IMG/VR virus record: IMGVR_UViG_3300020047_005985
Span: 1 to 64,000 of that record
DNA length: 64,000 nucleotides
Strand: one strand, 5' to 3'
Source: a virus
Taxonomy: Duplodnaviria; Caudoviricetes
Translations under genes and position numbers: made by a program
The notes under the pieces: model-generated
Database searches by the model: none
Told to the model about the DNA's origin: nothing
What the model saw: only the letters and a program-made list of their open reading frames with translations
Shown here: piece by piece, positions 1-27,530 of the stretch
Position numbering within the stretch: the first letter of the stretch is position 1
Layout of the letters: each line of letters opens with the position of its first letter

Positions 1-831
1 TCTAACTATACTCCATCTTTAAAAATGTATGAAGGATTTATTAAACTAAATCATTTATACCAAGGAGATGAAATACTTCCATTTATAGGTGAATCTGAAT
101 ATTACAGATATTTAGTTCCAATGCTATTAAAGATGAATCCTGAAGTTGAAACAATGTTTACTCATCATATTAAGTATTTTGCAAGACAAATAGCAGAACA
201 AAAACAAATTTCTCAATCTGTAATTGAAGAGTTAGATAATATTGTAATTGATGGAAGTGTGAGAGGAAGTTCTTTTGGAAATATAAATACTAATTTTATT
301 AGACCTGATAGTTCAGGTAAAACAGTAGTCCATGAATTAGTTCATCGAACTTTGCAAAAAGAATATGAAAAACAAGGTGAATTTCAAACTAAAATAAATG
401 AATTATATGATTATGCTCAAAAGTTTGATGATTTTAGTTCTTACGGTTTTACTAGTGAGACAGAATTTCTTGCGGAGGCTATGTCCAACCCAGACTTTAT
501 GGAAGTTCTTAACAACATCTCTTATAAAGGACAAACCGTGTGGACATACTTAATGACTTTAATTTCAGACTTTATAAATAACATGTTAAACATAGAGTTA
601 AATTCTGATTCTGTTTTAGCTGAAGTTATACGAGCTTCTGAACAAGTATTAAACAATAATTTATCTGAACTTGGTAAAGAAAAACAAATAACTTTATCTG
701 AATTGGAAAATGAAATAGTAACTAATTGGGATAATTACTTTCCACAGTATTCTTGGATGAATGATGCTCAAAAGCAAATGACAGCTAAATTAGTAGAAGA
801 AGGTAAAATCACATTAAATTGTAGTATATGA
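1..831 (+). CDS. C-terminal part of a large virion cargo protein with a zincin metallopeptidase-like domain (5'-partial)
   Basis: HELVH (HExxH) plus downstream EFLAEAMSNPDF, typical of crAss-like large virion proteins; the frame is open back to position 1. Confidence 0.65.
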   Translation, partial: SNYTPSLKMYEGFIKLNHLYQGDEILPFIGESEYYRYLVPMLLKMNPEVETMFTHHIKYFARQIAEQKQISQSVIEELDNIVIDGSVRGSSFGNINTNFIRPDSSGKTVVHELVHRTLQKEYEKQGEFQTKINELYDYAQKFDDFSSYGFTSETEFLAEAMSNPDFMEVLNNISYKGQTVWTYLMTLISDFINNMLNIELNSDSVLAEVIRASEQVLNNNLSELGKEKQITLSELENEIVTNWDNYFPQYSWMNDAQKQMTAKLVEEGKITLNCSI

Positions 832-3800
832 ACTGTACAACTCAAGAAGATTTTAATAGTGCCATAGAGTTTGGTAGAATTATTAATGAAACTCACAGAG
901 ATCAAACTGCTGACGTTACAGTTAGTTTTTTAGATAATACTACAGGTAATGTAGAAAAGATAGATGGTAGTTACAAAGCTAAAGGTGGTAAAGCTTCTAT
1001 TAAAGAAAGTGTTACTGAAAAAGTTAGTAAGAAAAAACCATATAGGGGAAAACCTAATCCTTTGCTGGAACAGCAAGGATTAATAGGTAATCAGGTTCAT
1101 GAATTGACTGAGTTTGTAGCTCAGTCAATTCTGAATCATACTAATAATGTTTCTAATGATTCTGCTATTAAGTATATTCAGACATTAGTATTTACTGGTC
1201 AAGAAGGTTTAAAAAAAATAAACGAAGGTTATGGAAAAGAACTAGATGACCAATCTATTCAAAATTTAATAGAAGGTGTTAAGGATGTTTTATTAACTGT
1301 TTATAGAACTCAAAGAACTAAGAATACTTTAACTGGTAAACAAGGAAAAGCTACTATTAGATTAGAACAAGTTGTAATAGATCCTAAAAGAGGAATTGGT
1401 GGAACAATTGATTTATTAGCTATATATTCAGATAATACAGCTTCGGTAATTGATTTTAAAACTAAGATTTTAAAAGCTGATAATAAAGATTCTGAAGGTA
1501 ATATTATAGACGGAGGTAAAATTATTACTAATTATGATTTAGAAAAATACAAACTTCAAACAGGTGAATACGGTAGAATATTACGAGAGTCTTATGGTGT
1601 AAAAGAAATACATTCTGTATTTATTTTTCCAATTAAACTTAATATAGGTTTAAATGTAAAAGCTGCTAAATACGCAAATACAATTAGAGGTTTAAAGTTC
1701 CCAGGTCAAGATCCATTGTTAGCTAAAGTATTACCATTCTCTAATAAAACCGGATTTAAAGAGTTGGATTTATTTATTAGAGATGTGGATGATAAAATAA
1801 AACGATTAGAGCAGAGAATTAAAGCTGATCCTAAATCCAGAGATTCTTTACAAGAAAGAACTGATAGATTGGAATTAGTTAAAAAGGAAATTTTTATTAA
1901 TCATAACCTGGACTCTGTAATTGCATATGGTAGATTTTTATCTGACAAAGTAGATAAAGCTGAATTGAATCAGTTGAATATTCCTGAACTTCAAGATTTA
2001 CTTGGTGAACTAGTTTTAATAGAAAATATTACAAACTCTACTAGAGGTTATAGAACCTTTCTTAAGAAAACTTCAAAAGCTGAAGAAATTGATGAGGTAG
2101 AAAAGAAGATAGGTTTAATGGAAACTGAAATTAAGGATAAAATTGGTTTAGTTAAAGATGTTTATTTTAAAGACAAGGTTGCAAAATTAATTGAAGCTGC
2201 TTCAGGATTTAAAGTATTAGATGATTATGGAAACTATATTCCATTTGCTCAAGAAGGATATTTTGGTAAAATCTTTTATCAGTTAAGTCAATACGATACT
2301 CCTGCTTTTAAAACTTTAAAGAAAATATTAAACAGTATCAACTATAAAGTTAGACAAAATGTAGATGAAGTTACTGATGAGATTGTAAGAGTAGAAGGAA
2401 ATGTGGAAAAATGGAGAACACAAACAGGAAGATCTTTTGAAGATCTAATTAAAATTATGATTAATCCAGCAACTGATAATTTTTGGGGAAGATATGATGG
2501 AGAATATATTGAAGAAATGAAGTTGGCCAATGGTTCTACATTATATAAATATTTTGAACCTACAGATAAGTATAATGAAAGATATCAAGATAGATTAGAT
2601 AAAGAAATTAAACGTTTAGAAGAAGCTGGTTATAAAGATAAGTTTTTAGAAGATGCCACTCAAAAATGGGTTAGTAAGAATAGTCTAGAATTAGAGAATG
2701 GAAGACCTAAATATCCAGATGCATGGGAAAGAGGTAAGAGATTTAACTGGTTGCATATGAAAGATAGTCCAGAAAATTATAATCAAAACTATAAGTTCAT
2801 ATTATCTATTCCAGAACTAAAGGCTTATTACGAAATGTTTGAAAAGTATAATAAGAAGTTTAGAGATATGTTAGGAGTAGATTATACAAAACTTCCTAAT
2901 AACTTCCTGCCAAATATTCGTAAAACAATTTCAGAAAGAGTTACTGAACAAGGTACCAATGGATTAATTGCTGGAACACAAGACTTCTTTAAAGATTTTT
3001 CAATTAGAGAAGAAGATAGATCAGAGGATACATCTTATAATAGTAATGAACAAATTCCGATATTCTTTTTAAATAGGTTTAGATCTAAAGATGGAGGATT
3101 ACAAGTAGGTGAAAAATCATATCAGTTTGGCAGGTCTTTAGCTATATTTGCTAAAATGGCCTTTGATTATGAAGCTACTACAGAAAGAGAAGCTGAAATT
3201 ATAGCTTTACAGCAGTTCCTGGAAACAGAAGCTGAACAAATTACTCAATCAAGAGGTAAGAATTTAATAGACCAAATGGGTAATCAGTTAACTGAAAAAC
3301 TTCAAGCTAATGATTTACCTGAAATATTCAGATCTTTTGTAGATATGTATGTTTATAAGATCGGAATTAAATCTGTTATTGGTGATAAATCTGGTACTTC
3401 TGAAAGAATGTTGATGAAAGCTAAAGAATACTTTACTTTAAAAGTTTTAGGTTTTAATGTAATTGCTGGTTTAGGATCATTTGCAACTGCTAAAATTAAT
3501 ACTATTGTTGAATCTAATAAAGGTATAATTTTTAACAGTACAAATTATAAAGAATCTATGCAAGCTTCTTGGGATGAAAGAGAAAAGTTTTTAGCTTTAA
3601 GTGCTTATTTTGATCCAATGTCTCACAGACTAAATAATCCTAGAATAGCTGGAGAACAACAATACGGAGAAAGATTTTACTCTGATCCTACAATGAGAGG
3701 ATGGATTAACAAGTATATTAATTCTCGAATGTTAATGAATGTGTTTTCTGTCGGAGATCAATATATTGAGGAAGTAGTAACTGCTGCTATGGCTAAAAAT

Positions 3801-4829
3801 TATTATGTTGACGATCTTGGTAATTTAAGAAGAATTACTAATGCTACTCCAGAATCTAGTTGGGAAAATAGAACTGTTTGGGATTTATTTAGTTATTCTA
3901 AAGAAGATGGAGTTAAATTAAATCTTAAACCAGAACAAATTGAAAATGTATTTACTAGTTTTAGAGATGCAGTTCAAGCAGGTCAATCTAGAATTAAAGG
4001 TACTATTCCAGAAGATGATAAAGCTGCATGGCAGCATAATATATTTGGTCAATTAATGATGCATTTTAAATCATGGATGCCTGGTATTATCTTTGAAAGA
4101 TTTGGTAAAGTAAAATATGATTCAAGAATAGATTCTCTTTATATGGGTAAATATATAGCTTTAAGTAAAGAGTTTCAAAATCCTGATAAATTAGTATTTA
4201 CCACATTCTTTAAACAAATTCTACTTCCTAGGTTTGGAAAATTATTAGCAGATATTACTACGTTTGGATTACTATCTAAAAATAGATTAAATGATAAGTT
4301 AAATAAAGAACTTTACTTTGAAAAATGGTTAGATGAAAATCCACACTATCGAGGTAAAGTTACATTTGAAGACTTTAATGAAATTCAACAAAAACAACTA
4401 AAGTCTATTATTCAAGAATTACGAGTTCTTTTAGTAATTGCAGGATTGATTTTACTTGTAGGATTTGATTATGATGATGATGGAGAAAAAGATTATAAGA
4501 AGTATTTATTAACTAGAAAGTTGGCTTCTCTTTTATTTAAAGTAGAACAAGAACTTTCTTTTGTTTATAGTCCAGTAGCATTTTCAACTTTAATAAAGAA
4601 CCCTGTTCCAACAATAGGATTAGTTAATGATGGTTATAAACTTTTAAAAAATACCATTGATGAAGGATTAGATCCTTTCTTTGGAGAAGAGAGGTTGATA
4701 GGTGGAGAAACTAAAGATAAAAAACCTATTTTATCAGAAAGTATTAAACTTGTGCCAGGTAGTGCAGGAATAATTAGATTTTTTGATTTCTTATCAAATG
4801 ACGTTCAATATTCAAAAACACAACAATGA
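828..4829 (+). CDS. Large virion cargo/ejection protein with N-terminal PD-(D/E)xK nuclease-like domain and C-terminal hydrophobic helix
   Basis: 1333 aa; GTIDLLAIYSDNTASVIDFKT...Q...Y nuclease motif; LRVLLVIAGLILLVGF putative TM; position at the end of a large-protein operon as in crAss-like phages. Confidence 0.65.
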   Translation: MNCTTQEDFNSAIEFGRIINETHRDQTADVTVSFLDNTTGNVEKIDGSYKAKGGKASIKESVTEKVSKKKPYRGKPNPLLEQQGLIGNQVHELTEFVAQSILNHTNNVSNDSAIKYIQTLVFTGQEGLKKINEGYGKELDDQSIQNLIEGVKDVLLTVYRTQRTKNTLTGKQGKATIRLEQVVIDPKRGIGGTIDLLAIYSDNTASVIDFKTKILKADNKDSEGNIIDGGKIITNYDLEKYKLQTGEYGRILRESYGVKEIHSVFIFPIKLNIGLNVKAAKYANTIRGLKFPGQDPLLAKVLPFSNKTGFKELDLFIRDVDDKIKRLEQRIKADPKSRDSLQERTDRLELVKKEIFINHNLDSVIAYGRFLSDKVDKAELNQLNIPELQDLLGELVLIENITNSTRGYRTFLKKTSKAEEIDEVEKKIGLMETEIKDKIGLVKDVYFKDKVAKLIEAASGFKVLDDYGNYIPFAQEGYFGKIFYQLSQYDTPAFKTLKKILNSINYKVRQNVDEVTDEIVRVEGNVEKWRTQTGRSFEDLIKIMINPATDNFWGRYDGEYIEEMKLANGSTLYKYFEPTDKYNERYQDRLDKEIKRLEEAGYKDKFLEDATQKWVSKNSLELENGRPKYPDAWERGKRFNWLHMKDSPENYNQNYKFILSIPELKAYYEMFEKYNKKFRDMLGVDYTKLPNNFLPNIRKTISERVTEQGTNGLIAGTQDFFKDFSIREEDRSEDTSYNSNEQIPIFFLNRFRSKDGGLQVGEKSYQFGRSLAIFAKMAFDYEATTEREAEIIALQQFLETEAEQITQSRGKNLIDQMGNQLTEKLQANDLPEIFRSFVDMYVYKIGIKSVIGDKSGTSERMLMKAKEYFTLKVLGFNVIAGLGSFATAKINTIVESNKGIIFNSTNYKESMQASWDEREKFLALSAYFDPMSHRLNNPRIAGEQQYGERFYSDPTMRGWINKYINSRMLMNVFSVGDQYIEEVVTAAMAKNYYVDDLGNLRRITNATPESSWENRTVWDLFSYSKEDGVKLNLKPEQIENVFTSFRDAVQAGQSRIKGTIPEDDKAAWQHNIFGQLMMHFKSWMPGIIFERFGKVKYDSRIDSLYMGKYIALSKEFQNPDKLVFTTFFKQILLPRFGKLLADITTFGLLSKNRLNDKLNKELYFEKWLDENPHYRGKVTFEDFNEIQQKQLKSIIQELRVLLVIAGLILLVGFDYDDDGEKDYKKYLLTRKLASLLFKVEQELSFVYSPVAFSTLIKNPVPTIGLVNDGYKLLKNTIDEGLDPFFGEERLIGGETKDKKPILSESIKLVPGSAGIIRFFDFLSNDVQYSKTQQ

Positions 4830-5344
4830 AAAACTTAATTTTAATTTTACTTACTTTTGTTTGTTTCAACCTTCAAGCTCAGTTTGATGGTTCTAAAAAA
4901 GCTATTGTTATTACTGTACACGATGGTGATTCTTATGGTATTAAATTCTTGGACAGACTTGATACTACTGTTTATATTAGATTACATAACATTGATGCTC
5001 CCGAAGTAGTGTTTTACGTAATTAAAGATCAGCCTTATGCCAGACAGTCAGCTAAAGCTATTAGAGATCTTATTAAAGGTGATACAATTGATGTAACTTT
5101 CAGTTACAAAGATACATTCAAACGTTTAGTTTGCGATGTTAAAAAAGATTCAATTGATCTCACTGAATATGCTATAGCTAATGGTTTAGCTTGGTATGAA
5201 TCTGATAAAGCAACTGAACTTGAAAGATTAGAGTATTTAAAAAGTTTGCAAAAAAAAGCTCAAGAAGCTAAAATTGGTTTATGGGGTGAACCAGGTAGAA
5301 AGTTAAGACCTGCTACTTGGAGACGCAGATATTCCAGATTATAA
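4826..5344 (+). CDS. Thermonuclease (SNase-like) with signal peptide
   Basis: VHDGDS, IRLHNIDAPE, KDTFKRLV, GLAW, AQEAKIGLW motifs; N-terminal signal peptide ending LQA. Confidence 0.9.
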   Translation: MKNLILILLTFVCFNLQAQFDGSKKAIVITVHDGDSYGIKFLDRLDTTVYIRLHNIDAPEVVFYVIKDQPYARQSAKAIRDLIKGDTIDVTFSYKDTFKRLVCDVKKDSIDLTEYAIANGLAWYESDKATELERLEYLKSLQKKAQEAKIGLWGEPGRKLRPATWRRRYSRL

Positions 5345-5991: not shown

Positions 5992-6417
5992 TTATTTGTT
6001 TTTTAAAAGTACGTCCCAAAATTCTTGAGGAAGGTAAACATTTTCTAATTCTACTGCATCTTTAAATAAAGGTGCAATTTGCTCTGGAGTGTAACCAGCT
6101 AAACCACAACCAATAGCACTTAAATAAAAATAAAGATTTGGATTTTCTTCTACAAAATAAAAGAATTCGGTTACAAAATTTTGAATTCTTCTGAGAGAAA
6201 GTGTAGTAATACTCTCGTCTTTTGTTGGTATTGCATAAGAATTTCCTTGTATCCCCACACCTTTACCATAAACACCTCCACACTTTAAATACGCAAATTG
6301 AGCAGCCCCAGCACCATGTTTTCCTGCTAAGTTACTCCCAAAAACAAAGATGTTCTTTGTATTTTGAAATAATTCTTTTTTATAAAAACCATCTTTATCA
6401 AATAGTGTTTCTGTCAT
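5992..6417 (-). CDS. Macro-domain-like protein (A1S_2505-type phage protein)
   Basis: IFVFGSNLAGKHGAGAA, YAIPTK, IGCGLAGY motifs. Confidence 0.75.
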   Translation of the reverse strand: MTETLFDKDGFYKKELFQNTKNIFVFGSNLAGKHGAGAAQFAYLKCGGVYGKGVGIQGNSYAIPTKDESITTLSLRRIQNFVTEFFYFVEENPNLYFYLSAIGCGLAGYTPEQIAPLFKDAVELENVYLPQEFWDVLLKNK

Positions 6418-7096
6418 TTTTAATAAATGTATAATTTTTAATCAACCGATTTTCTTTTAAATACTTTTTAAATGTGCTATATTTCATATCTAAAAACATC
6501 GAAGCTTCTTTTATAGAAGAGAATTCCTTGTTTAACTCTATACAAAATAATGGTGTCCTATGCTGATTTTGTAATGCTAATTTCTGTCTATTTTCTGGAA
6601 TACTGCACCATGCTTTTCGTCTTAAACACAATATTTCTTTAGTTTTGTCAGAATGTTTTTCAAAAGGACTATTACGAAGCCCTTTACGAATTTTAGATAA
6701 ATGATCTTTTGTATTTTGCGAATGAGTTTTACCAAAGAAAGGATTTAGTTCTCCAAACTTTCCTGAATTAGCAATTCCAATTTTCCTTTTTATTTCTTCT
6801 GTCATAGGAATACCCTCTCCACCATAGGTAAGATTATAACCAACTCCCTTAACATTTGACGATAAGATTTTAATAAATTCAATTTCTTTAGAAACTATCT
6901 CTTCGAGAGAGCTTCCTTGATATAATATATACCAGCTAAAATTATTAAAACCATATTTTAGAAGAGCATTATGAAAATAACAATTGTCTTTTCCCATTTT
7001 ATGCTTATGTGAAATCTTTCTTCTTATTAAAGAGGTTGTTGTATAACCCACATAAATTTTACGGTTAACATTATTTACAGCAAGATAAACAATCAT
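6398..7096 (-). CDS. Free-standing GIY-YIG homing endonuclease with NUMOD3-like repeats
   Basis: IVYLAVNNVNRKIYVGYT...R, GYNLTYGGEG, NPFFGKTHS; likely start ATG 7096; no intron core seen in the flanks. Confidence 0.85.
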   Translation of the reverse strand: MIVYLAVNNVNRKIYVGYTTTSLIRRKISHKHKMGKDNCYFHNALLKYGFNNFSWYILYQGSSLEEIVSKEIEFIKILSSNVKGVGYNLTYGGEGIPMTEEIKRKIGIANSGKFGELNPFFGKTHSQNTKDHLSKIRKGLRNSPFEKHSDKTKEILCLRRKAWCSIPENRQKLALQNQHRTPLFCIELNKEFSSIKEASMFLDMKYSTFKKYLKENRLIKNYTFIKNDRNTI

Positions 7097-7152
7097 AGAA
7101 AGTTTAACGTTAGTGCTTATAATACTATCAGTCACAATCTTTCTTTAATTCT

Positions 7153-7369: not shown

Positions 7370-7774
7370 TTAAGTTAAAGTAATCCAAATCTTTTTAGGT
7401 ACTAAAATTTCTTTCTGTTCTACAAAATCATACTCGATTTTTTGAAAACATCCAGTTTTTGAATCATAATTTAGTAAATTAATTCTGATAAATTTATCTT
7501 CGATATTAAAAATTATATAATGATCGTTAGAGTCGTCATCATATTTTTCATCTACAATAAATTCATCAAAATCAAATGTTTTATCCCAAGCTTTCAAATT
7601 ACACATTACCCATTTTACAGAATCATCTCGATTAAGTTTAACAGTATTAATAAATTCTTCCCAGGAATCATGGAGATATAAATTATTTATAATTTTATTC
7701 TTGGCTTCTAACGGTAATTTTTCAAATTTTGGTAAAAGAAATTCAATTAAGAATTTCAACGCTTTATTTTTCAT
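7370..7774 (-). CDS. Hypothetical protein
   Basis: 134-aa ORF, start overlaps the upstream stop. Confidence 0.55.
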   Translation of the reverse strand: MKNKALKFLIEFLLPKFEKLPLEAKNKIINNLYLHDSWEEFINTVKLNRDDSVKWVMCNLKAWDKTFDFDEFIVDEKYDDDSNDHYIIFNIEDKFIRINLLNYDSKTGCFQKIEYDFVEQKEILVPKKIWITLT

Positions 7775-8208
7775 AATTTAATTTGAAATCTATTTCTCAT
7801 TTTTTCAATTGTTTCATCAGGAACATTATGAATATTCTTACTCCCATGTCTGTTTTCTATTATCATTGTTACTACTTGATAATCATATATTTCAGCAAGT
7901 TTAAAATATTCTTCCATTTCCCATTCTTCAGTAAATGTATTAGCTACAAAAATCTTATTATAATCATAGTCAGAAGGAAGGTCTAAAATTTCATTTTGCA
8001 TCATAACGATAACACATTTTCGGCACCATTTATGAGCGTCTTTAACTTCATTAATGTTGAAATTATAATTTCCTTCTAAATCTTCAAAATACATATCGGC
8101 TGAAATAACTGGATATTTACCATGTTCTGAAAGAAGATTACCTACAGTTGTTTTACCAGCTCCAGGTAATCCTCTTAATAAAAATAATGTTTTAGACATG
8201 ATGGTCAA
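7771..8208 (-). CDS. P-loop kinase (polynucleotide-kinase-like, AAA_33)
   Basis: LLRGLPGAGKTT Walker A, ISAD, VANTF, NIHNVP..IEKM..RF. Confidence 0.85.
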   Translation of the reverse strand: MTIMSKTLFLLRGLPGAGKTTVGNLLSEHGKYPVISADMYFEDLEGNYNFNINEVKDAHKWCRKCVIVMMQNEILDLPSDYDYNKIFVANTFTEEWEMEEYFKLAEIYDYQVVTMIIENRHGSKNIHNVPDETIEKMRNRFQIKL

Positions 8209-8794
8209 AATCTGATTGATATTCTCGACCTTTTAAAAGATCTACAACATCTGTTAACTTATAAGGATATAAATCATTTCCATCTACACCTACATCCATT
8301 TTCTTACCATTGCTAAATCTCAAATCTCCTTGTAAATGTTGGTGTCCATGTAAATGAAATTCACCTTTTCTAATATTATTCCAAGATTCAATTGGGAAAT
8401 GGAATAAACAGAAATTTAGATTTCCGATATTAAGTTCCAAATAAGGATAAAGAGCTGTAAATAAATAATCATAATCTCCTTTTTTAATATGCTGATCGTG
8501 GTTTCCATAAATAAAAAAGATATCTTTAACATTCAACATCTTCCTAAATATTTCAATATTATCCTTTCCTGCAAATGACCAATCTCCAAGATGAAACAAA
8601 ATTCCATCTTCAGGAATAACTGAATTAAAATTATCAGCCATTCTTTGAGTCATTTCTTCAGGAGTATCAAAATCTCTGAACTTGAATATTCCATCTTGTT
8701 CCCAACTAGTAGTACCTCTTGTAATATTTTTATGAAAAGCGTGTGTATCTGAAGTAATCCAGATTTTATCCAGCAGACTGTGGTTTAGTTTCAT
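8192..8794 (-). CDS. Calcineurin-like metallophosphoesterase
   Basis: SDTHAFH, HLGD, GNHD, HFP, HGHQH, DVGVD. Confidence 0.9.
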   Translation of the reverse strand: MKLNHSLLDKIWITSDTHAFHKNITRGTTSWEQDGIFKFRDFDTPEEMTQRMADNFNSVIPEDGILFHLGDWSFAGKDNIEIFRKMLNVKDIFFIYGNHDQHIKKGDYDYLFTALYPYLELNIGNLNFCLFHFPIESWNNIRKGEFHLHGHQHLQGDLRFSNGKKMDVGVDGNDLYPYKLTDVVDLLKGREYQSDFDHHV

Positions 8795-9020
8795 TTTCTA
8801 ATATTTTTTTCAATCTCTCGTAATCTTCAAAAGCTTTTTCTATAGCTATTTTAAACGGTTTGCAATAATATCTATGACAGCTTTGTTCACCACTAGATCT
8901 GAGTTTACCATTTGAGGTATAAACTTGTTTAAAAGTTACTTGATCGCCTGAAAATCCTGTGACTCTAAAGAATCCGCTACTATATGCAGTGATTAAATCA
9001 CCAATTTTTATTTCATCCAT
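8766..9020 (-). CDS. Hypothetical protein
   Basis: 84-aa ORF overlapping both neighbours in the operon. Confidence 0.5.
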   Translation of the reverse strand: MDEIKIGDLITAYSSGFFRVTGFSGDQVTFKQVYTSNGKLRSSGEQSCHRYYCKPFKIAIEKAFEDYERLKKILENETKPQSAG

Positions 9021-10153
9021 AATATATATTCTGAATTTGTTTGTTCCATATTAAAAACAATATATTCCGAATTTCTTAAACCATCTCCAGGTTTAACATA
9101 TAGAGAATCCCATCCATTAGGTTTGAGATAATCATATTTCATCTGACTTCTGGATATTCCTTTTCCTTCTCTATACCATCCTTCATAAGTATAAGGATTT
9201 CCCATGTGTACATTCTGAATTAAGAATATTTTATCTTGATCTCCTCCGGTATAACCAAGGGACTTATCAGTATGTGCAGAATGATAAATACCTTCTCCAT
9301 AAGCAGCTCCTGAAATAACAGCGTTAGTAGGTCGAATAATCAATCCTGATTTTAAAATACTAAATATATTAGGATTTCTAGTTCCATGAATCAGATATTC
9401 ACAATTCTTATTATCTTGTTTATCAACCCATTCTTTAAACAGATCTGTTCTTTTTGAATGAGTTATCTTATAAACTTTATAAGGTCTATATCTACTTGAA
9501 TTTGTAGGCATAACCAGTGTATCTATAAATACAGGATTATCAACCAATTCAATTTTAACTCCTAAAAGATCTTCAATATTCTGATCTCCTGAAACAAGAT
9601 TGGTAATAATCTGACTAGATAAAGAATCTAGAATATCTTGTTCTTTAGAAATTCTTTTATCTTTATTTTCTAAATCTTTGAGAATTTCATTTCTAACATC
9701 AGCTATTCTTCTAGGTAAAGCTGTAAATAGTTTTAACAGGTTAGAATTAAATTCATCTACTGTTTGAGCTTGTAACATTAAATTGATAGATCCTTGAGCA
9801 TCATCAACCATAGCTTTAGTTACAGCTCCAGCAGATATAGTATAATTCCTACCTACATTTTCTTTAGTATATCTGGAGAAACAATTATAAAAATGTTCTA
9901 CATCAGTCGAATTAAAAGTAATTTTACCGTCTATAGTTTGAGCTTTAAGGTCAGATACATCTCTATATCCTTTCTTAATTTTCTCTCTATATTTAGAATC
10001 CCAACGAGATATGGGGTAAACTTCTGTTATTGAAGTCACCCCAACTCGTCCATACTCTACTTTAAAATTACCATCATCTGTATCTGACATACGATAAAAT
10101 TTATTAGAATTTTGATCTGACACAAGTATTAATTCAATAGGATTTCTAACCAT
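9008..10153 (-). CDS. WGR-domain poly(ADP-ribose) polymerase-like ADP-ribosyltransferase
   Basis: N-terminal NSNKFY..YGRVG..KIKKGY (WGR); helical region with LFTALPR; catalytic HGT, GAAYGEGIYHS, KSLGY, NSEYIVF (H-Y-E triad). Confidence 0.9.
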   Translation of the reverse strand: MVRNPIELILVSDQNSNKFYRMSDTDDGNFKVEYGRVGVTSITEVYPISRWDSKYREKIKKGYRDVSDLKAQTIDGKITFNSTDVEHFYNCFSRYTKENVGRNYTISAGAVTKAMVDDAQGSINLMLQAQTVDEFNSNLLKLFTALPRRIADVRNEILKDLENKDKRISKEQDILDSLSSQIITNLVSGDQNIEDLLGVKIELVDNPVFIDTLVMPTNSSRYRPYKVYKITHSKRTDLFKEWVDKQDNKNCEYLIHGTRNPNIFSILKSGLIIRPTNAVISGAAYGEGIYHSAHTDKSLGYTGGDQDKIFLIQNVHMGNPYTYEGWYREGKGISRSQMKYDYLKPNGWDSLYVKPGDGLRNSEYIVFNMEQTNSEYILWMK

Positions 10154-10154
10154 A

Positions 10155-11105
10155 TTAAATCTGATTTAACTTCTGACGAATATCAAATGTAAAGAAAGCC
10201 TGAAGGAGCTTATGTTCTTCACAATTTGGGTCATCCAAAATAATGTCAAAATCATGTGGATTATTATTCCAAAGCTTAAGAAAAGCATTTCTCAAATAAG
10301 GTTTAGCCATATCTTTAATATCTACCAATTGACCTTTATTTTTACTCAAGTGTTTACCTGTGGGAACATATTTCCAAATCTTATGATTGTCAGAAGTATA
10401 TTTTCCAGTATGTTGTAAACCTAATTGATCGAACAATTCTTTAAAATTAGACAAAGAAAATCCTTTTGCTTGAAAATAAGATTTCATTTGAGTCTTTGTA
10501 ATTTCTCCGCCTATTACATGGTCAACGTAATCCTGAAGATTTTGCAATGTTAGTGAGTTCTGTACTGAGGACGACGGTAACAGTTGGTTATAATAAACTC
10601 GATGTTCTAAACCGTTACTATTAAAAACTGTATCGTAATATAAATTTTGACTTGCCATAAAATTTGATACCCAATCTTGATTCCAATATACATCAGGATG
10701 TAGAAGCCTTAATCCATTTTTAAGTTCTAACGTTGTTATTGTTGGATTATTATTTGCAAACCAAGAATTGAGTAATTGTTGTGCTAATTGTTCTTTACTA
10801 ACTGTCATATTTAATTTTTCTTTTAGCCATTGAAGACCTTCTTCAATAGTATTAACTAATTTTGTGTGTTCGTCTGGAGAAACATGTTCTAACCATTTTC
10901 CGTATTCCTGATATTTTTTCCAACCTGGTATATAAAACTCATACTTAATTTCATTATTCATAAACAAATCTCCTTTTCCATCTCTTTGCCTCTGATATAC
11001 TTCGGCAATACATACTTCTCCTAACCAAACTCTACCTCCTGTGTTTTCAACATCTGGATAGGAAATATATTCTATAAAAGTATTATTCCATTCTAATTTA
11101 ATCAT
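10155..11105 (-). CDS. Hypothetical protein between ligase and PARP
   Basis: 316-aa ORF tightly coupled to both neighbours. Confidence 0.6.
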   Translation of the reverse strand: MIKLEWNNTFIEYISYPDVENTGGRVWLGEVCIAEVYQRQRDGKGDLFMNNEIKYEFYIPGWKKYQEYGKWLEHVSPDEHTKLVNTIEEGLQWLKEKLNMTVSKEQLAQQLLNSWFANNNPTITTLELKNGLRLLHPDVYWNQDWVSNFMASQNLYYDTVFNSNGLEHRVYYNQLLPSSSVQNSLTLQNLQDYVDHVIGGEITKTQMKSYFQAKGFSLSNFKELFDQLGLQHTGKYTSDNHKIWKYVPTGKHLSKNKGQLVDIKDMAKPYLRNAFLKLWNNNPHDFDIILDDPNCEEHKLLQAFFTFDIRQKLNQI

Positions 11106-12159
11106 AATCTAAAATATGTTTAACTGTTGGAAATCTCAAACTGCCATCTTCAGTATAACCGAAGAATTTTATGGTAGCTTCTTTACCAATAACATTTTGT
11201 TTATCTGACCATATTTTCCTCATAAAATCTTCAGTACCAGTCATTGTAGGTTTACAGATAGCTCCTGATTCTAACTTTATAACTAGCATGTTTGCACAAC
11301 CTGTTCTATTCCCTGTTCCTTCCAAAACATCAATAATTTCCCATTCGGCATCTTGCCAATCTTTATATTTAAGAAGCTGCTTACTACGTTTATTTTCATA
11401 ACCACCTAAATCCATTCTAATAATAGAACCTTCGTAACCATTAGAAATAAATTCCTCGTGATACCTTAACAATTCTTCTTTAGATTTAATTTCGTAAGTA
11501 GGAACAAGCTTAAAAGTGTTTGGAAAATTTTTAAAGTCATGTTTTAACATTGAATATCTTTCGGAAAATACTTTGTCATGATTATAAGGATAATCGTAAA
11601 CCCAATATTGGATTAGCTTTTTAGATTCTTCTAAATCTTTTAATTCAGGTTTGGTTTTACGTGTTAAGCTGATAATCTTATTAAAATCTGCTTTCAAATC
11701 ATGATTATATAATTCGCCATCTAGTCCAAAATAGTTTAATTCTAAATGAGGACAACTTACAATAGATTTCCCTGCTCTAGTCATCAACTTTTTATCATTT
11801 AGATAACATCTTACACCATCCAGTTTAGGTTGAATAAAAGTTTTAACTGTAAATAAGAGTTTAGAATATTTACTAAATTCAAAAGCCAACATTGGTTCAA
11901 AGAATTTCTTTTTTGAAGTTAAAACTTCATTATAACCTTTATCTAATTTCTTTTGAAACTTAGACTGAGCTTCTAGTAAACACTGTTGTTCAGCAGTAGT
12001 TTCATTCTTTTTACCAATATTTTTTCCTACACAAATAGTAGGACTAGACTTGGTTAATATGTTAATTCCTTCTTCTGTCCAATATACTGAACCAGAAGTA
12101 AATATTTGCCAACTTTGTATTTGGCCTTTTGTCGTGTATTTATACAGTTTTGGAAACAT
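11098..12159 (-). CDS. lig: ATP-dependent DNA ligase with N-terminal WGR-like region
   Basis: PMLA, QPKLDGVR, LDGELY, GYEGSIIR, LLKYK, SLRFP. Confidence 0.93.
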   Translation of the reverse strand: MFPKLYKYTTKGQIQSWQIFTSGSVYWTEEGINILTKSSPTICVGKNIGKKNETTAEQQCLLEAQSKFQKKLDKGYNEVLTSKKKFFEPMLAFEFSKYSKLLFTVKTFIQPKLDGVRCYLNDKKLMTRAGKSIVSCPHLELNYFGLDGELYNHDLKADFNKIISLTRKTKPELKDLEESKKLIQYWVYDYPYNHDKVFSERYSMLKHDFKNFPNTFKLVPTYEIKSKEELLRYHEEFISNGYEGSIIRMDLGGYENKRSKQLLKYKDWQDAEWEIIDVLEGTGNRTGCANMLVIKLESGAICKPTMTGTEDFMRKIWSDKQNVIGKEATIKFFGYTEDGSLRFPTVKHILDYD

Positions 12160-26237: not shown

Positions 26238-27530
26238 TTATTCTATAATCTCTTCTCCGGTATCTAATTGCTTACTTTCCCATTCTAAAAACCTTTTAGA
26301 TTTAAGTTTATAGGCAATTTTACTAGTAGATTCATTTCTAATGCAAATACCTTCAGCAGGAACGCTATGAGTGCAGTATCGACAATCTTTTTCTAAGTAC
26401 ATGTCTTTCAGAATTTGCAATAATTCCACTGAATCAAATTCTCCTTTAGAAGATTGATTTATAAAATCTCCAATTTTACCATAATACAATTCTGGCACGT
26501 GATTTAAATTATATTCTTCGCAAAACAATTTAATATCGTTCCAAGACCATTCAAGTAATCCGTATGGTTCTTGTGAAGTAATTCTATAAATCAAAAACTT
26601 ATATTGTCCAGGTAAACAACCATAACCATATCCTTTTTGAATCATTTTCTCTCCAGTATAACCTACTATCTCACCATAGATCGTATAACCTTCAAACAAA
26701 CAGGGCTTTACATCCTCGAATACTTTACCCCAAATATCAGAATTATAAAATCCTTGTTCTTTAGTATGATATCTATCTTCAACATGTTTAATTACTGTTC
26801 TAGAAGAATACATTTTTTTATACTCTTCTGTAGAAACATTGGATCCAAAAAACATTTTAATCTTTTCCCAAATAGATAATTTTCTTTTAGTTAAAAGATT
26901 GGAAAATACTGCTGAAGTACCATGCCATTTATCCGTAATTACAATAGTGTTTTCTGGATTATTAAATCTCCAGACATTATCTTGTAATTTAGAAGTAGAA
27001 TAATGAAAGTTAAATTGACCAGGAATTAAAATATCTGAAATTTTTGGGCCTTTAGGTTTACCTTGTCCTTGACCAGATCTTACTTCTTTAATTTCAGGAA
27101 CATATTTATTACAAATAACTATTCCGTCTAAAGTATCGAATTTTTCGTCTATACAATATGCACATCGTTCTTCAGGAACATCTAAAGCAATACAAACATC
27201 TTTTAAAGGTAATAAAATACCATCTGAAATCATACCTCTTAACTTAACAGCTTTCACACGTCTTGATTTAGAGATATAACCTACTTTAGTTTGATCTTCA
27301 TTTAACTCTCTGTCTTGATACATATTCATCTTAGATAAGATTTTATGATGTATCTGACACTCTACTGGAAAAAATATTTTAATATCTCCTTCTTTAGAAG
27401 ACATATCTGTAATAACATCATACCCGTTTACATTCCAAATCTGAAGTCTATCAGCATTTGGATGTTGTTTAGATTTTTCAAGTTTGACAATTTGAGCTAG
27501 GTAATTACTTTCTGTGGTTACGCTGAACAT
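26238..27530 (-). CDS. RNA ligase (Rnl2/DRB0094-like) with N-terminal OB-fold
   Basis: HPNADRL, VKLRG.ISDG, TDKWHGTS (motif I), YGEIVG, EGICIR, YKLKS. Confidence 0.88.
   Translation of the reverse strand: MFSVTTESNYLAQIVKLEKSKQHPNADRLQIWNVNGYDVITDMSSKEGDIKIFFPVECQIHHKILSKMNMYQDRELNEDQTKVGYISKSRRVKAVKLRGMISDGILLPLKDVCIALDVPEERCAYCIDEKFDTLDGIVICNKYVPEIKEVRSGQGQGKPKGPKISDILIPGQFNFHYSTSKLQDNVWRFNNPENTIVITDKWHGTSAVFSNLLTKRKLSIWEKIKMFFGSNVSTEEYKKMYSSRTVIKHVEDRYHTKEQGFYNSDIWGKVFEDVKPCLFEGYTIYGEIVGYTGEKMIQKGYGYGCLPGQYKFLIYRITSQEPYGLLEWSWNDIKLFCEEYNLNHVPELYYGKIGDFINQSSKGEFDSVELLQILKDMYLEKDCRYCTHSVPAEGICIRNESTSKIAYKLKSKRFLEWESKQLDTGEEIIE

Follow-up and report, generated by a model that had tools for sequence, protein, structure and literature searches.

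The present analysis concerns the first 64 kb of a 108,241-bp phage genome from IMG/VR (record IMGVR_UViG_3300020047_005985; this 64,000-nt stretch is hereafter the window), and centers on a gene for a PARP-family ADP-ribosyltransferase (ART) and on the unannotated gene beside it, which encodes a winged-helix protein (hereafter the partner). What is new is that the PARP gene nearly always travels with this winged-helix gene, in phages and bacteria alike. One more intact phage PARP by itself changes little, and the interest of the locus rests mostly on the partner, a computational and statistically strong lead that gives a concrete handle on bacterial and phage PARP function: PARP is accompanied by a small winged-helix protein more consistently than by PARG, and DNA ligase is the sole other recurrent neighbor.

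The evidence from phages comes from 78 viral loci around PARP relatives, 53 of them with a full-length PARP, for which 44 clusters at 90% identity served as the non-redundant set. Label-free clustering of all open reading frames (ORFs) within 4 kb of PARP returned just two recurrent families, relatives of the 316-residue partner (26 loci by BLAST) and DNA ligase (15 of 44), and all remaining clusters were limited to five loci or fewer each. An iterated profile found the partner in 27 of the 44 non-redundant loci, always on the PARP strand, at a distance of 50 nt or less in 16 loci, of 51-1000 nt in seven and farther away in four. This profile was specific, in that it matched 35 of 5,369 locus ORFs, one per locus. 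The partner lies upstream of PARP in the clade of the window and downstream in most others, including Cellulophaga phage phi4:1. In the window, the stop codon of the partner falls 1 nt before the ATG of PARP, a spacing that suggests coupled translation.

The same association extends to bacterial chromosomes. Prokaryotes, scanned at one genome per species, yielded 19 bacterial loci with relatives of the window's PARP (27-43% identity), nearly all from Bacteroidota (Cytophagales, Microscillaceae, Bernardetia/Flexibacter and Rhodothermales), and the ORF immediately downstream of PARP matched the partner profile in 13 of 18 bacterial loci. On a complete Bernardetia chromosome, unrelated housekeeping genes (phosphodiesterase, DUF58/VWA, methyltransferase and amino-acid kinase) surround the pair (L093 4884-6344 and 6472-7344), which is thus neither in a prophage nor in an obvious defense island. 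Across 301 genomes of the Cytophagales, PARP was present in 43 and the partner likewise in 43, with both in 39, the partner only in four, PARP only in four and neither in 254 (Fisher p 8e-40, a value uncorrected for shared ancestry and drawn from one bacterial order). The 39 genomes with both genes hold them adjacent in 25 cases and on different contigs or far apart in 14. Microbial PARG was present in 38 of the 301 genomes and in 21 of the 43 that are PARP-positive, and was never adjacent to PARP among the matches listed; of the 41 PARPs that exceed the Pfam cut-off, 39 are accompanied by the partner and 21 by PARG. The partner is accordingly the more faithful genomic companion of this PARP lineage (39/43 vs 21/43). 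In a maximum-likelihood tree (a quick search only, with SH-aLRT supports and a midpoint root for drawing only), the window's protein falls in a well-supported, all-viral clade that is sister to the phi4:1 group. Because partner-linked PARPs sit in several deep viral and bacterial clades of this tree, the pairing looks old in the lineage and kept through transfers and rearrangements. A subclade of PARPs of about 775-780 residues from Cytophagaceae/Microscillaceae (loci L088, L089, L090 and L092; for example, L090 3846-6182) carries an extra N-terminal region of ~380 residues ahead of WGR and lacks a partner gene next to it, and the genome that holds L090 encodes two PARPs and one unlinked partner copy.

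The partner is labeled hypothetical in every database source and returned no match in Pfam, PHROG or PADLOC. Residues 97-315 of the window's copy are common to its relatives, and the N-terminal 96 residues are an addition specific to this phage and of low model confidence. The invariant core comprises about 70 residues ('VTTLEIKxELR ... WxQxxVSxxM ... DNGTYRTY'), and the AlphaFold2 (AF2) model (predicted local distance difference test, pLDDT, of 79, and above 90 for most of 104-316) contains two winged-helix-like units followed by a helical tail, with the conserved winged-helix core at 102-179. VIA-align superposed residues 102-176 on PadR/Fur-type and cullin winged helices at Z 8.4 (root-mean-square deviation 2.0-2.3 Å over 64-71 residues); as this Z is middling by the tool's own scale, the fold is claimed here and a specific family is not. 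Foldseek gave weak matches only, all to multi-winged-helix proteins, and the ESM Atlas search gave only low-scoring winged-helix look-alikes. The C-terminal parts of the partner vary between subclades. In loci L012-L018, L023 and L025, where the partner is downstream of PARP, it carries a Lys/Ser/Thr/Pro/Ala-rich linker (56-69% of residues, vs 24-36% in the winged-helix core) and then a small 'GxFFTVxFxKKDG' domain with faint WYL_2 matches, neither of which occurs in the clade of the window; these linker-bearing proteins are loosely reminiscent of winged-helix-plus-basic-tail proteins. Two more specific identities were considered and rejected. A WYL-type sensor was set aside because the faint WYL_2 match (E 0.008) occurs in two of 27 members and not in the window's copy, and a linker-histone-like protein because the linker belongs to one subclade only and histone H1 was not matched in Pfam or structure searches. 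Further members of the partner family were noted at L007 8181-8642 and L093 6472-7344.

It could be argued that the winged-helix gene merely encodes a transcription factor for the PARP gene, or is co-inherited with it, and that PARP works alone; such an explanation would compete for the role of the partner and not for that of PARP. Winged-helix proteins are mostly transcription regulators, the top structural neighbors of the partner are regulators of the PadR/Fur/MarR type, its profile against PDB sequences gave as best match the DNA-binding domain of the arginine repressor (non-significant, E 0.44), and co-occurrence may partly reflect common descent. However, the pairing survives changes in gene order, transfer between phage and bacterium and the unlinking seen in 14 genomes, the link to PARP is much tighter than that between PARP and PARG, and the single-nucleotide spacing speaks for coupled translation. 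We regard a purely regulatory or incidental partner as somewhat unlikely. A tentative proposal is that PARP and the winged-helix protein form an undescribed two-component ADP-ribosylation module common to Bacteroidota and many of their phages, with the partner as a dedicated substrate or DNA-targeting subunit. If true, the partner would do for this minimal PARP what zinc fingers or histone-type acceptors do for PARP1 in eukaryotes. A search of the openly accessible literature found no described pair of PARP and winged-helix protein, which is not proof of absence.

The PARP ORF is exactly that called by the sequence-only reading (9008-10153, minus strand, 381 amino acids), which had proposed a phage-encoded WGR - helical - catalytic protein with an intact H-Y-E triad, and all four of the motifs that it listed are present (HGT at residue 256, YGEGIY at 285, KSLGY at 297 and SEY at 362). 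The domain order was borne out by Pfam, AF2, Foldseek and profile alignments to PARP1, with WGR at about 5-70, a helical regulatory-like segment at about 83-197 and the ART catalytic domain at about 200-381. The Pfam PARP catalytic domain (PF00644) matched residues 223-380 (E 3.8e-18, 66.2 bits vs a cut-off of 26.7), PHROG 23333 matched end to end (4.7e-110), and the family match is far beyond chance. The Pfam PARP_reg model gave no match at E <= 0.01; residues 108-200 nevertheless align by profile to the helical domain within PARP1 catalytic fragments. In a phmmer search against PDB sequences, PARP1 catalytic fragments ranked first, with an alignment that begins at residue 109 in the helical domain and takes in the His and Tyr motifs. 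When 43 relatives (47-93% identical to the protein of the window) were built into a profile, residues 108-324 were paired with PARP1 CAT 37-271 at E 6e-20, and a second segment paired the family 'LLnSEYIVYn' with PARP1 'LLYNEYIVYD', the strand that bears the catalytic Glu. The segments of the NAD+ pocket align to 'HGS', 'GKGIYF', 'SKSANY' and 'YNEY' of PARP1. Within the same 43-sequence alignment, the triad (H256, Y290 and E363), the nicotinamide pocket (G257, T258, K297, S298 and Y301) and the WGR hallmarks (N17-K18-x-Y20, Y34-G35-R36 and K58-x-x-K61-G62-Y63) are all invariant. Judged by this conservation, the active site seems to be intact and maintained by selection, and the gene product is predicted to be a catalytically competent PARP-family (H-Y-E) ART.

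The AF2 model of the protein (mean pLDDT 83, predicted TM-score 0.74) comprises a beta-rich N-terminal domain, a helical middle (helices 83-103, 113-127, 132-145 and 161-185) and an alpha/beta C-terminal domain. The AlphaFold comparison that the sequence-only reading had called for thus recovered an ART fold, and Foldseek placed on top the WGR-helical domain (HD)-ART chains of PARP1 bound to DNA double-strand breaks (4dqy_C, 4opx_C, 7s6m and 8g0h; E 1e-18 to 9e-20, TM 0.64-0.71), followed by PARP2 on DNA and then by catalytic fragments of PARP3 and PARP4, with a probability of 1.00 to many PARP1/2/3 catalytic domains. The human PARP1 catalytic fragment and WGR-CAT (4dqy, 7s6m and 1a26), PARP2 (6x0l) and PARP3 (3c49 and 4l7p) share with the window's protein the fold, the domain order and a TM of ~0.7 over WGR-HD-ART, and their NAD+ pocket residues (H, G, Y, K, S, Y and E) are all matched in it. 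However, identity to these enzymes is only 16-20%, and the phage protein has neither the zinc fingers and BRCT domain of PARP1 nor the N-terminal region of PARP2. The earlier label of "PARP3-like" does not hold, as the profile ranks PARP1 (6e-20) above PARP2 (2.4e-14), PARP3 (6.5e-10) and PARP4 (1.4e-8), and Foldseek likewise places WGR-CAT chains of PARP1 and PARP2 above PARP3. Nor does the minimal three-domain layout, known from PARP2 and PARP3, tie the protein to PARP3, since bacterial PARPs as a rule have the same WGR - helical - catalytic order (PMC8120803).

The window's PARP is of a kind already catalogued in phages. A tblastn search against 50,697 deposited phage records found relatives in 15, the best named one being gp031 of Cellulophaga phage phi4:1 (AGO49444.1; 49% identity over its full length), which is annotated 'poly (ADP-ribose) polymerase' and belongs to the same family. 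Phage phi4:1 is one of four dsDNA viruses for which PARP genes were listed, with a remark on the conserved H-Y-E triad (Perina et al. 2014, PMC4245714, section 3.7). Within the H-Y-[EDQ] clade, PART (PARP) has been named as one of the viral ART families that occur most often (Iyer et al. 2022, PMC9503650), and a role of phage PARP as DNA-damage sensor was proposed in 2024 (PMC11662467). The novelty implied by the sequence-only reading was therefore overstated. Its contrast with T4 Alt, ModA and ModB was correct as far as it went, without being the whole picture of phage ARTs: the T4 enzymes are, like the window's protein by prediction, phage-encoded NAD+-dependent ADP-ribosyltransferases, but they belong to the R-S-E clade and have no WGR or helical domain (PMC9503650). 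In addition, T4 Alt is packaged in the virion, whereas the gene in the window lies in a replication/repair operon. The product of phi4:1 has the same length and domain order as the window's PARP, with a partner (gp030, 'hypothetical protein') and DNA ligase (gp029) beside it. However, the gene order there is PARP - partner - ligase and in the window ligase - partner - PARP, the phi4:1 partner (~154 residues) is half the size of the 316-residue copy, and phi4:1 is an unrelated 146-kb Lightbulbvirus while the window's phage has a crAss-like terminase. Directly before PARP, phi4:1 carries a tRNA nucleotidyltransferase gene (gp032; L001 6277-7011), and nucleic-acid end-processing enzymes of varied kinds stand beside PARP in different phages.

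These data allow a mechanism to be proposed. In PARP1-3, DNA breaks are recognized by the WGR domain, NAD+ is kept out by the helical domain as long as no break is bound, and chain elongation requires the catalytic Glu. Outside eukaryotes, the relatives closest in published descriptions are the PARPs of Herpetosiphon aurantiacus (HaPARP) and Clostridioides difficile CD160 (CdPARP), which like the window's protein consist of the three domains, with a conserved H-Y-E and with neither zinc fingers nor BRCT (PMC8120803, PMC5966428). HaPARP depends on DNA and synthesizes long poly(ADP-ribose) (PAR) chains, and CdPARP has activity in vitro (PMC4245714, PMC8120803); among non-eukaryotic relatives, activity has been shown for these two alone, and it is DNA-dependent, PAR-forming and reversed by PARG (PMC8120803, PMC5966428). 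These species pair PARP with PARG, whereas no PARG match occurs in the window's phage, and the nearest bacterial relatives of its PARP are those of Bacteroidota (27-34% identity). Reviews describe the function of bacterial and phage PARPs as unknown and consider it unclear whether PAR metabolism operates in bacteria (PMC4245714, PMC8120803). As PARP1-3 and the Herpetosiphon enzyme both show break reading by WGR and control by the helical domain (background in PMC4245714 and PMC8120803), we lean, if only slightly, towards a break-activated ADP-ribosyltransferase that works with a DNA-binding partner beside a ligase. Upon encountering a nick or an end in replicating or incoming phage DNA, the WGR domain would bind it, and this binding would relieve the block that the helical domain places on NAD+ binding. 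The activated enzyme may then ADP-ribosylate itself, the winged-helix partner (as substrate or as DNA-targeting subunit) and possibly DNA termini, and the modification could mark or shield breaks and ends of phage DNA during replication until the ligase, acting in the same pathway, seals them. A break-related role, as the sequence-only reading had supposed, is plausible from the architecture and the recurrent ligase neighbor. If true, the phage protein and its partner would offer a minimal and tractable model of break-activated ADP-ribosylation outside eukaryotes.

Several observations weigh against such a role, beyond the uncorrected ancestry in the co-occurrence value. The WGR domain of the window's protein scores marginally below the Pfam cut-off (E 5.8e-4, 20.4 bits vs 22, residues 13-67), although several close family members pass it (PF05406), and its signature motif is YGR and not WGR. 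Asn361, nearly invariant in the family, aligns to Tyr986 of PARP1, and an Asn at this position could presumably, by analogy with PARP1 mutagenesis, affect elongation or branching. Linkage to the ligase is found in only a third of loci (15/44), and linkage to the kinase and phosphoesterase of the operon is specific to the lineage of the window. A search of the openly accessible literature found no report of activity for any phage PARP. Finally, the whole 108-kb genome has no match to Macro, PARG_cat_C, PARG_cat_microb, ADP_ribosyl_GH (ARH) or Nudix. With no recognizable eraser in the phage, PARylation of a reversible, signaling type would need a host enzyme. As to polymers or single units, the signs are mixed: the Glu is present and related bacterial PARPs form polymer in vitro, but Asn361 occupies the position of Tyr986, and H-Y-E is also found in PARP3, which is described as mono-specific, so that possession of the triad does not by itself ensure chain formation. 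That half of the PARP-bearing bacterial genomes keep PARG hints at polymer formation.

The patchy distribution of the pair and its exchange between phages and bacteria are equally typical of conflict systems, and this too speaks against a break-repair role. An alternate scenario is that DNA ends switch PARP on so that host proteins or nucleic acids are ADP-ribosylated in a takeover like that by T4 Alt/Mod, or NAD+ is drained at the expense of NAD-dependent defenses or competing phages, with the winged-helix protein as a regulator or an antitoxin-like restraint. PARP and partner occur in 14% of genomes in one bacterial order, the pair has been exchanged between phages and Bacteroidota and is present in unrelated phage lineages, most viral ARTs, including PARTs, have been placed in host-modification roles (PMC9503650, PMC7824862), and the missing eraser match in the phage genome would fit one-way modification. 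However, neither PARP nor partner, whether from phage or from bacteria, matched a PADLOC-DB v2 model at E <= 0.01, which also led us to reject a known anti-phage defense system as an identity for the pair. Further, the Bernardetia copy sits among housekeeping genes, and the two genes are unlinked in 14 genomes, which is unusual for toxin-antitoxin pairs. The phage gene lies in a replication/repair block behind the ligase, and injected ARTs are usually found beside head and packaging genes (PMC9503650). We consider the conflict scenario, the main rival, unlikely.

It has also to be asked whether the acceptor is DNA itself, such that terminal phosphates at the ends of the linear genome or at replication nicks would be ADP-ribosylated and thereby protected from host exonucleases until ligation or recombination. 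PARP2 and PARP3 ADP-ribosylate terminal DNA phosphates in vitro, and the WGR-HD-ART layout found here is the one that senses 5'-phosphorylated breaks. The phage genome carries direct terminal repeats, which would give it free ends on entry, and the ligase and the winged-helix DNA-binding neighbor would fit such a function. The sole ADP-ribose-related trace elsewhere in the genome, an NADAR-like stretch at genome positions 106948-107274 (+), outside the window, is sub-threshold (E 7.6e-6, 22.6 bits vs a cut-off of 35.1) and indicates at most that the phage may handle DNA bearing ADP-ribose. However, the case for end capping is purely inferential, the sequence does not separate DNA from protein acceptors, and the bacterial chromosomal copies have no linear genome ends. 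End capping, a narrower variant of the break-related role, is improbable as the function of the enzyme. The NADAR-like stretch lies inside a 2,773-residue ORF near the genome end and may be an ADP-ribose-removing domain of a giant, perhaps virion-delivered, protein.

The genes of the PARP operon are all on the minus strand and overlap or nearly so (Table 1). The ligase gene, which heads the operon, overlaps the start of the partner by 8 nt, and the 84-residue ORF that follows PARP, overlapping its stop by 13 nt, was not found in any related locus. The metallophosphoesterase occurs near PARP in only four related loci and the kinase near PARP in no other locus, and both are lineage-specific passengers. 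A eukaryote-like trio of PARP, PNKP and ligase as a conserved unit was accordingly rejected, since of these neighbors only the ligase recurs. An RNA ligase (PHROG 968) is encoded at 26238-27530 (-), 17 kb from the kinase and phosphoesterase genes (7771-8794), and the three together resemble a Pnkp-type RNA-repair set for end healing and sealing that is not conserved beside PARP elsewhere.

Table 1. Genes of the PARP operon in the window, from the ligase to the end of the gene set examined
Feature	Coordinates	Strand	Length (amino acids)	Evidence and remarks
ATP-dependent DNA ligase	11098..12159	-	353	Pfam DNA_ligase_A_M 9.6e-15; PHROG 114 1.4e-71
Unannotated winged-helix partner	10155..11105	-	316	AF2; VIA-align; linkage to PARP
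PARP-family ADP-ribosyltransferase	9008..10153	-	381	ATG start; Pfam, PHROG, AF2, Foldseek
ORF, no assigned function	8766..9020	-	84	13-nt overlap with PARP stop
Calcineurin-type metallophosphoesterase	8192..8794	-		Same operon; overlaps the 84-residue ORF; Pfam/PHROG
P-loop kinase AAA_33	7771..8208	-		Same operon; weak polynucleotide-kinase PHROG match; overlaps the phosphoesterase; followed by small unknowns
GIY-YIG homing endonuclease	6398..7135	-		End of gene set examined

The phage that carries this operon has a G+C content of ~29%, and no near-identical DNA was found among deposited phages. An NAD+ salvage gene (NAPRTase/NadV model) was not found in the genome. The sequence-only reading had looked to Crassvirales, an assignment that is loosely supported: the nearest named relative of the terminase large subunit is that of Cellulophaga phage phi14:2 (28.6% identity), with gut crAss-like phages at 27-28%, so that the placement depends on a single marker at a low identity of 27-29%. 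Deposited records with this terminase type number 109, none of which is among the 15 PARP-carrying records, and the window's PARP seems to be the first known from a phage whose terminase is crAss-like. PARP relatives occur on phage contigs of ~100 to 380 kb, and the terminases of these contigs show weak or no relationship to that of the window. The closest metagenomic relatives (65-93% identity) lie on contigs of about 106-113 kb, and in two of these the upstream genes are collinear with the window. The phage thus appears to represent one crAss-like lineage bearing a module also present in quite different phages.

The homing endonuclease gene, which combines GIY-YIG with NUMOD3, lies as an insertion where the PARP operon ends downstream, and the 141-residue ORF at 5992-6417 had no Pfam match at E <= 0.1. 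Two plus-strand genes converge on this end of the operon, the first encoding a 1,333-residue protein with a weak exonuclease PHROG match only (828-4829) and the second a staphylococcal-nuclease homologue (4826-5344).

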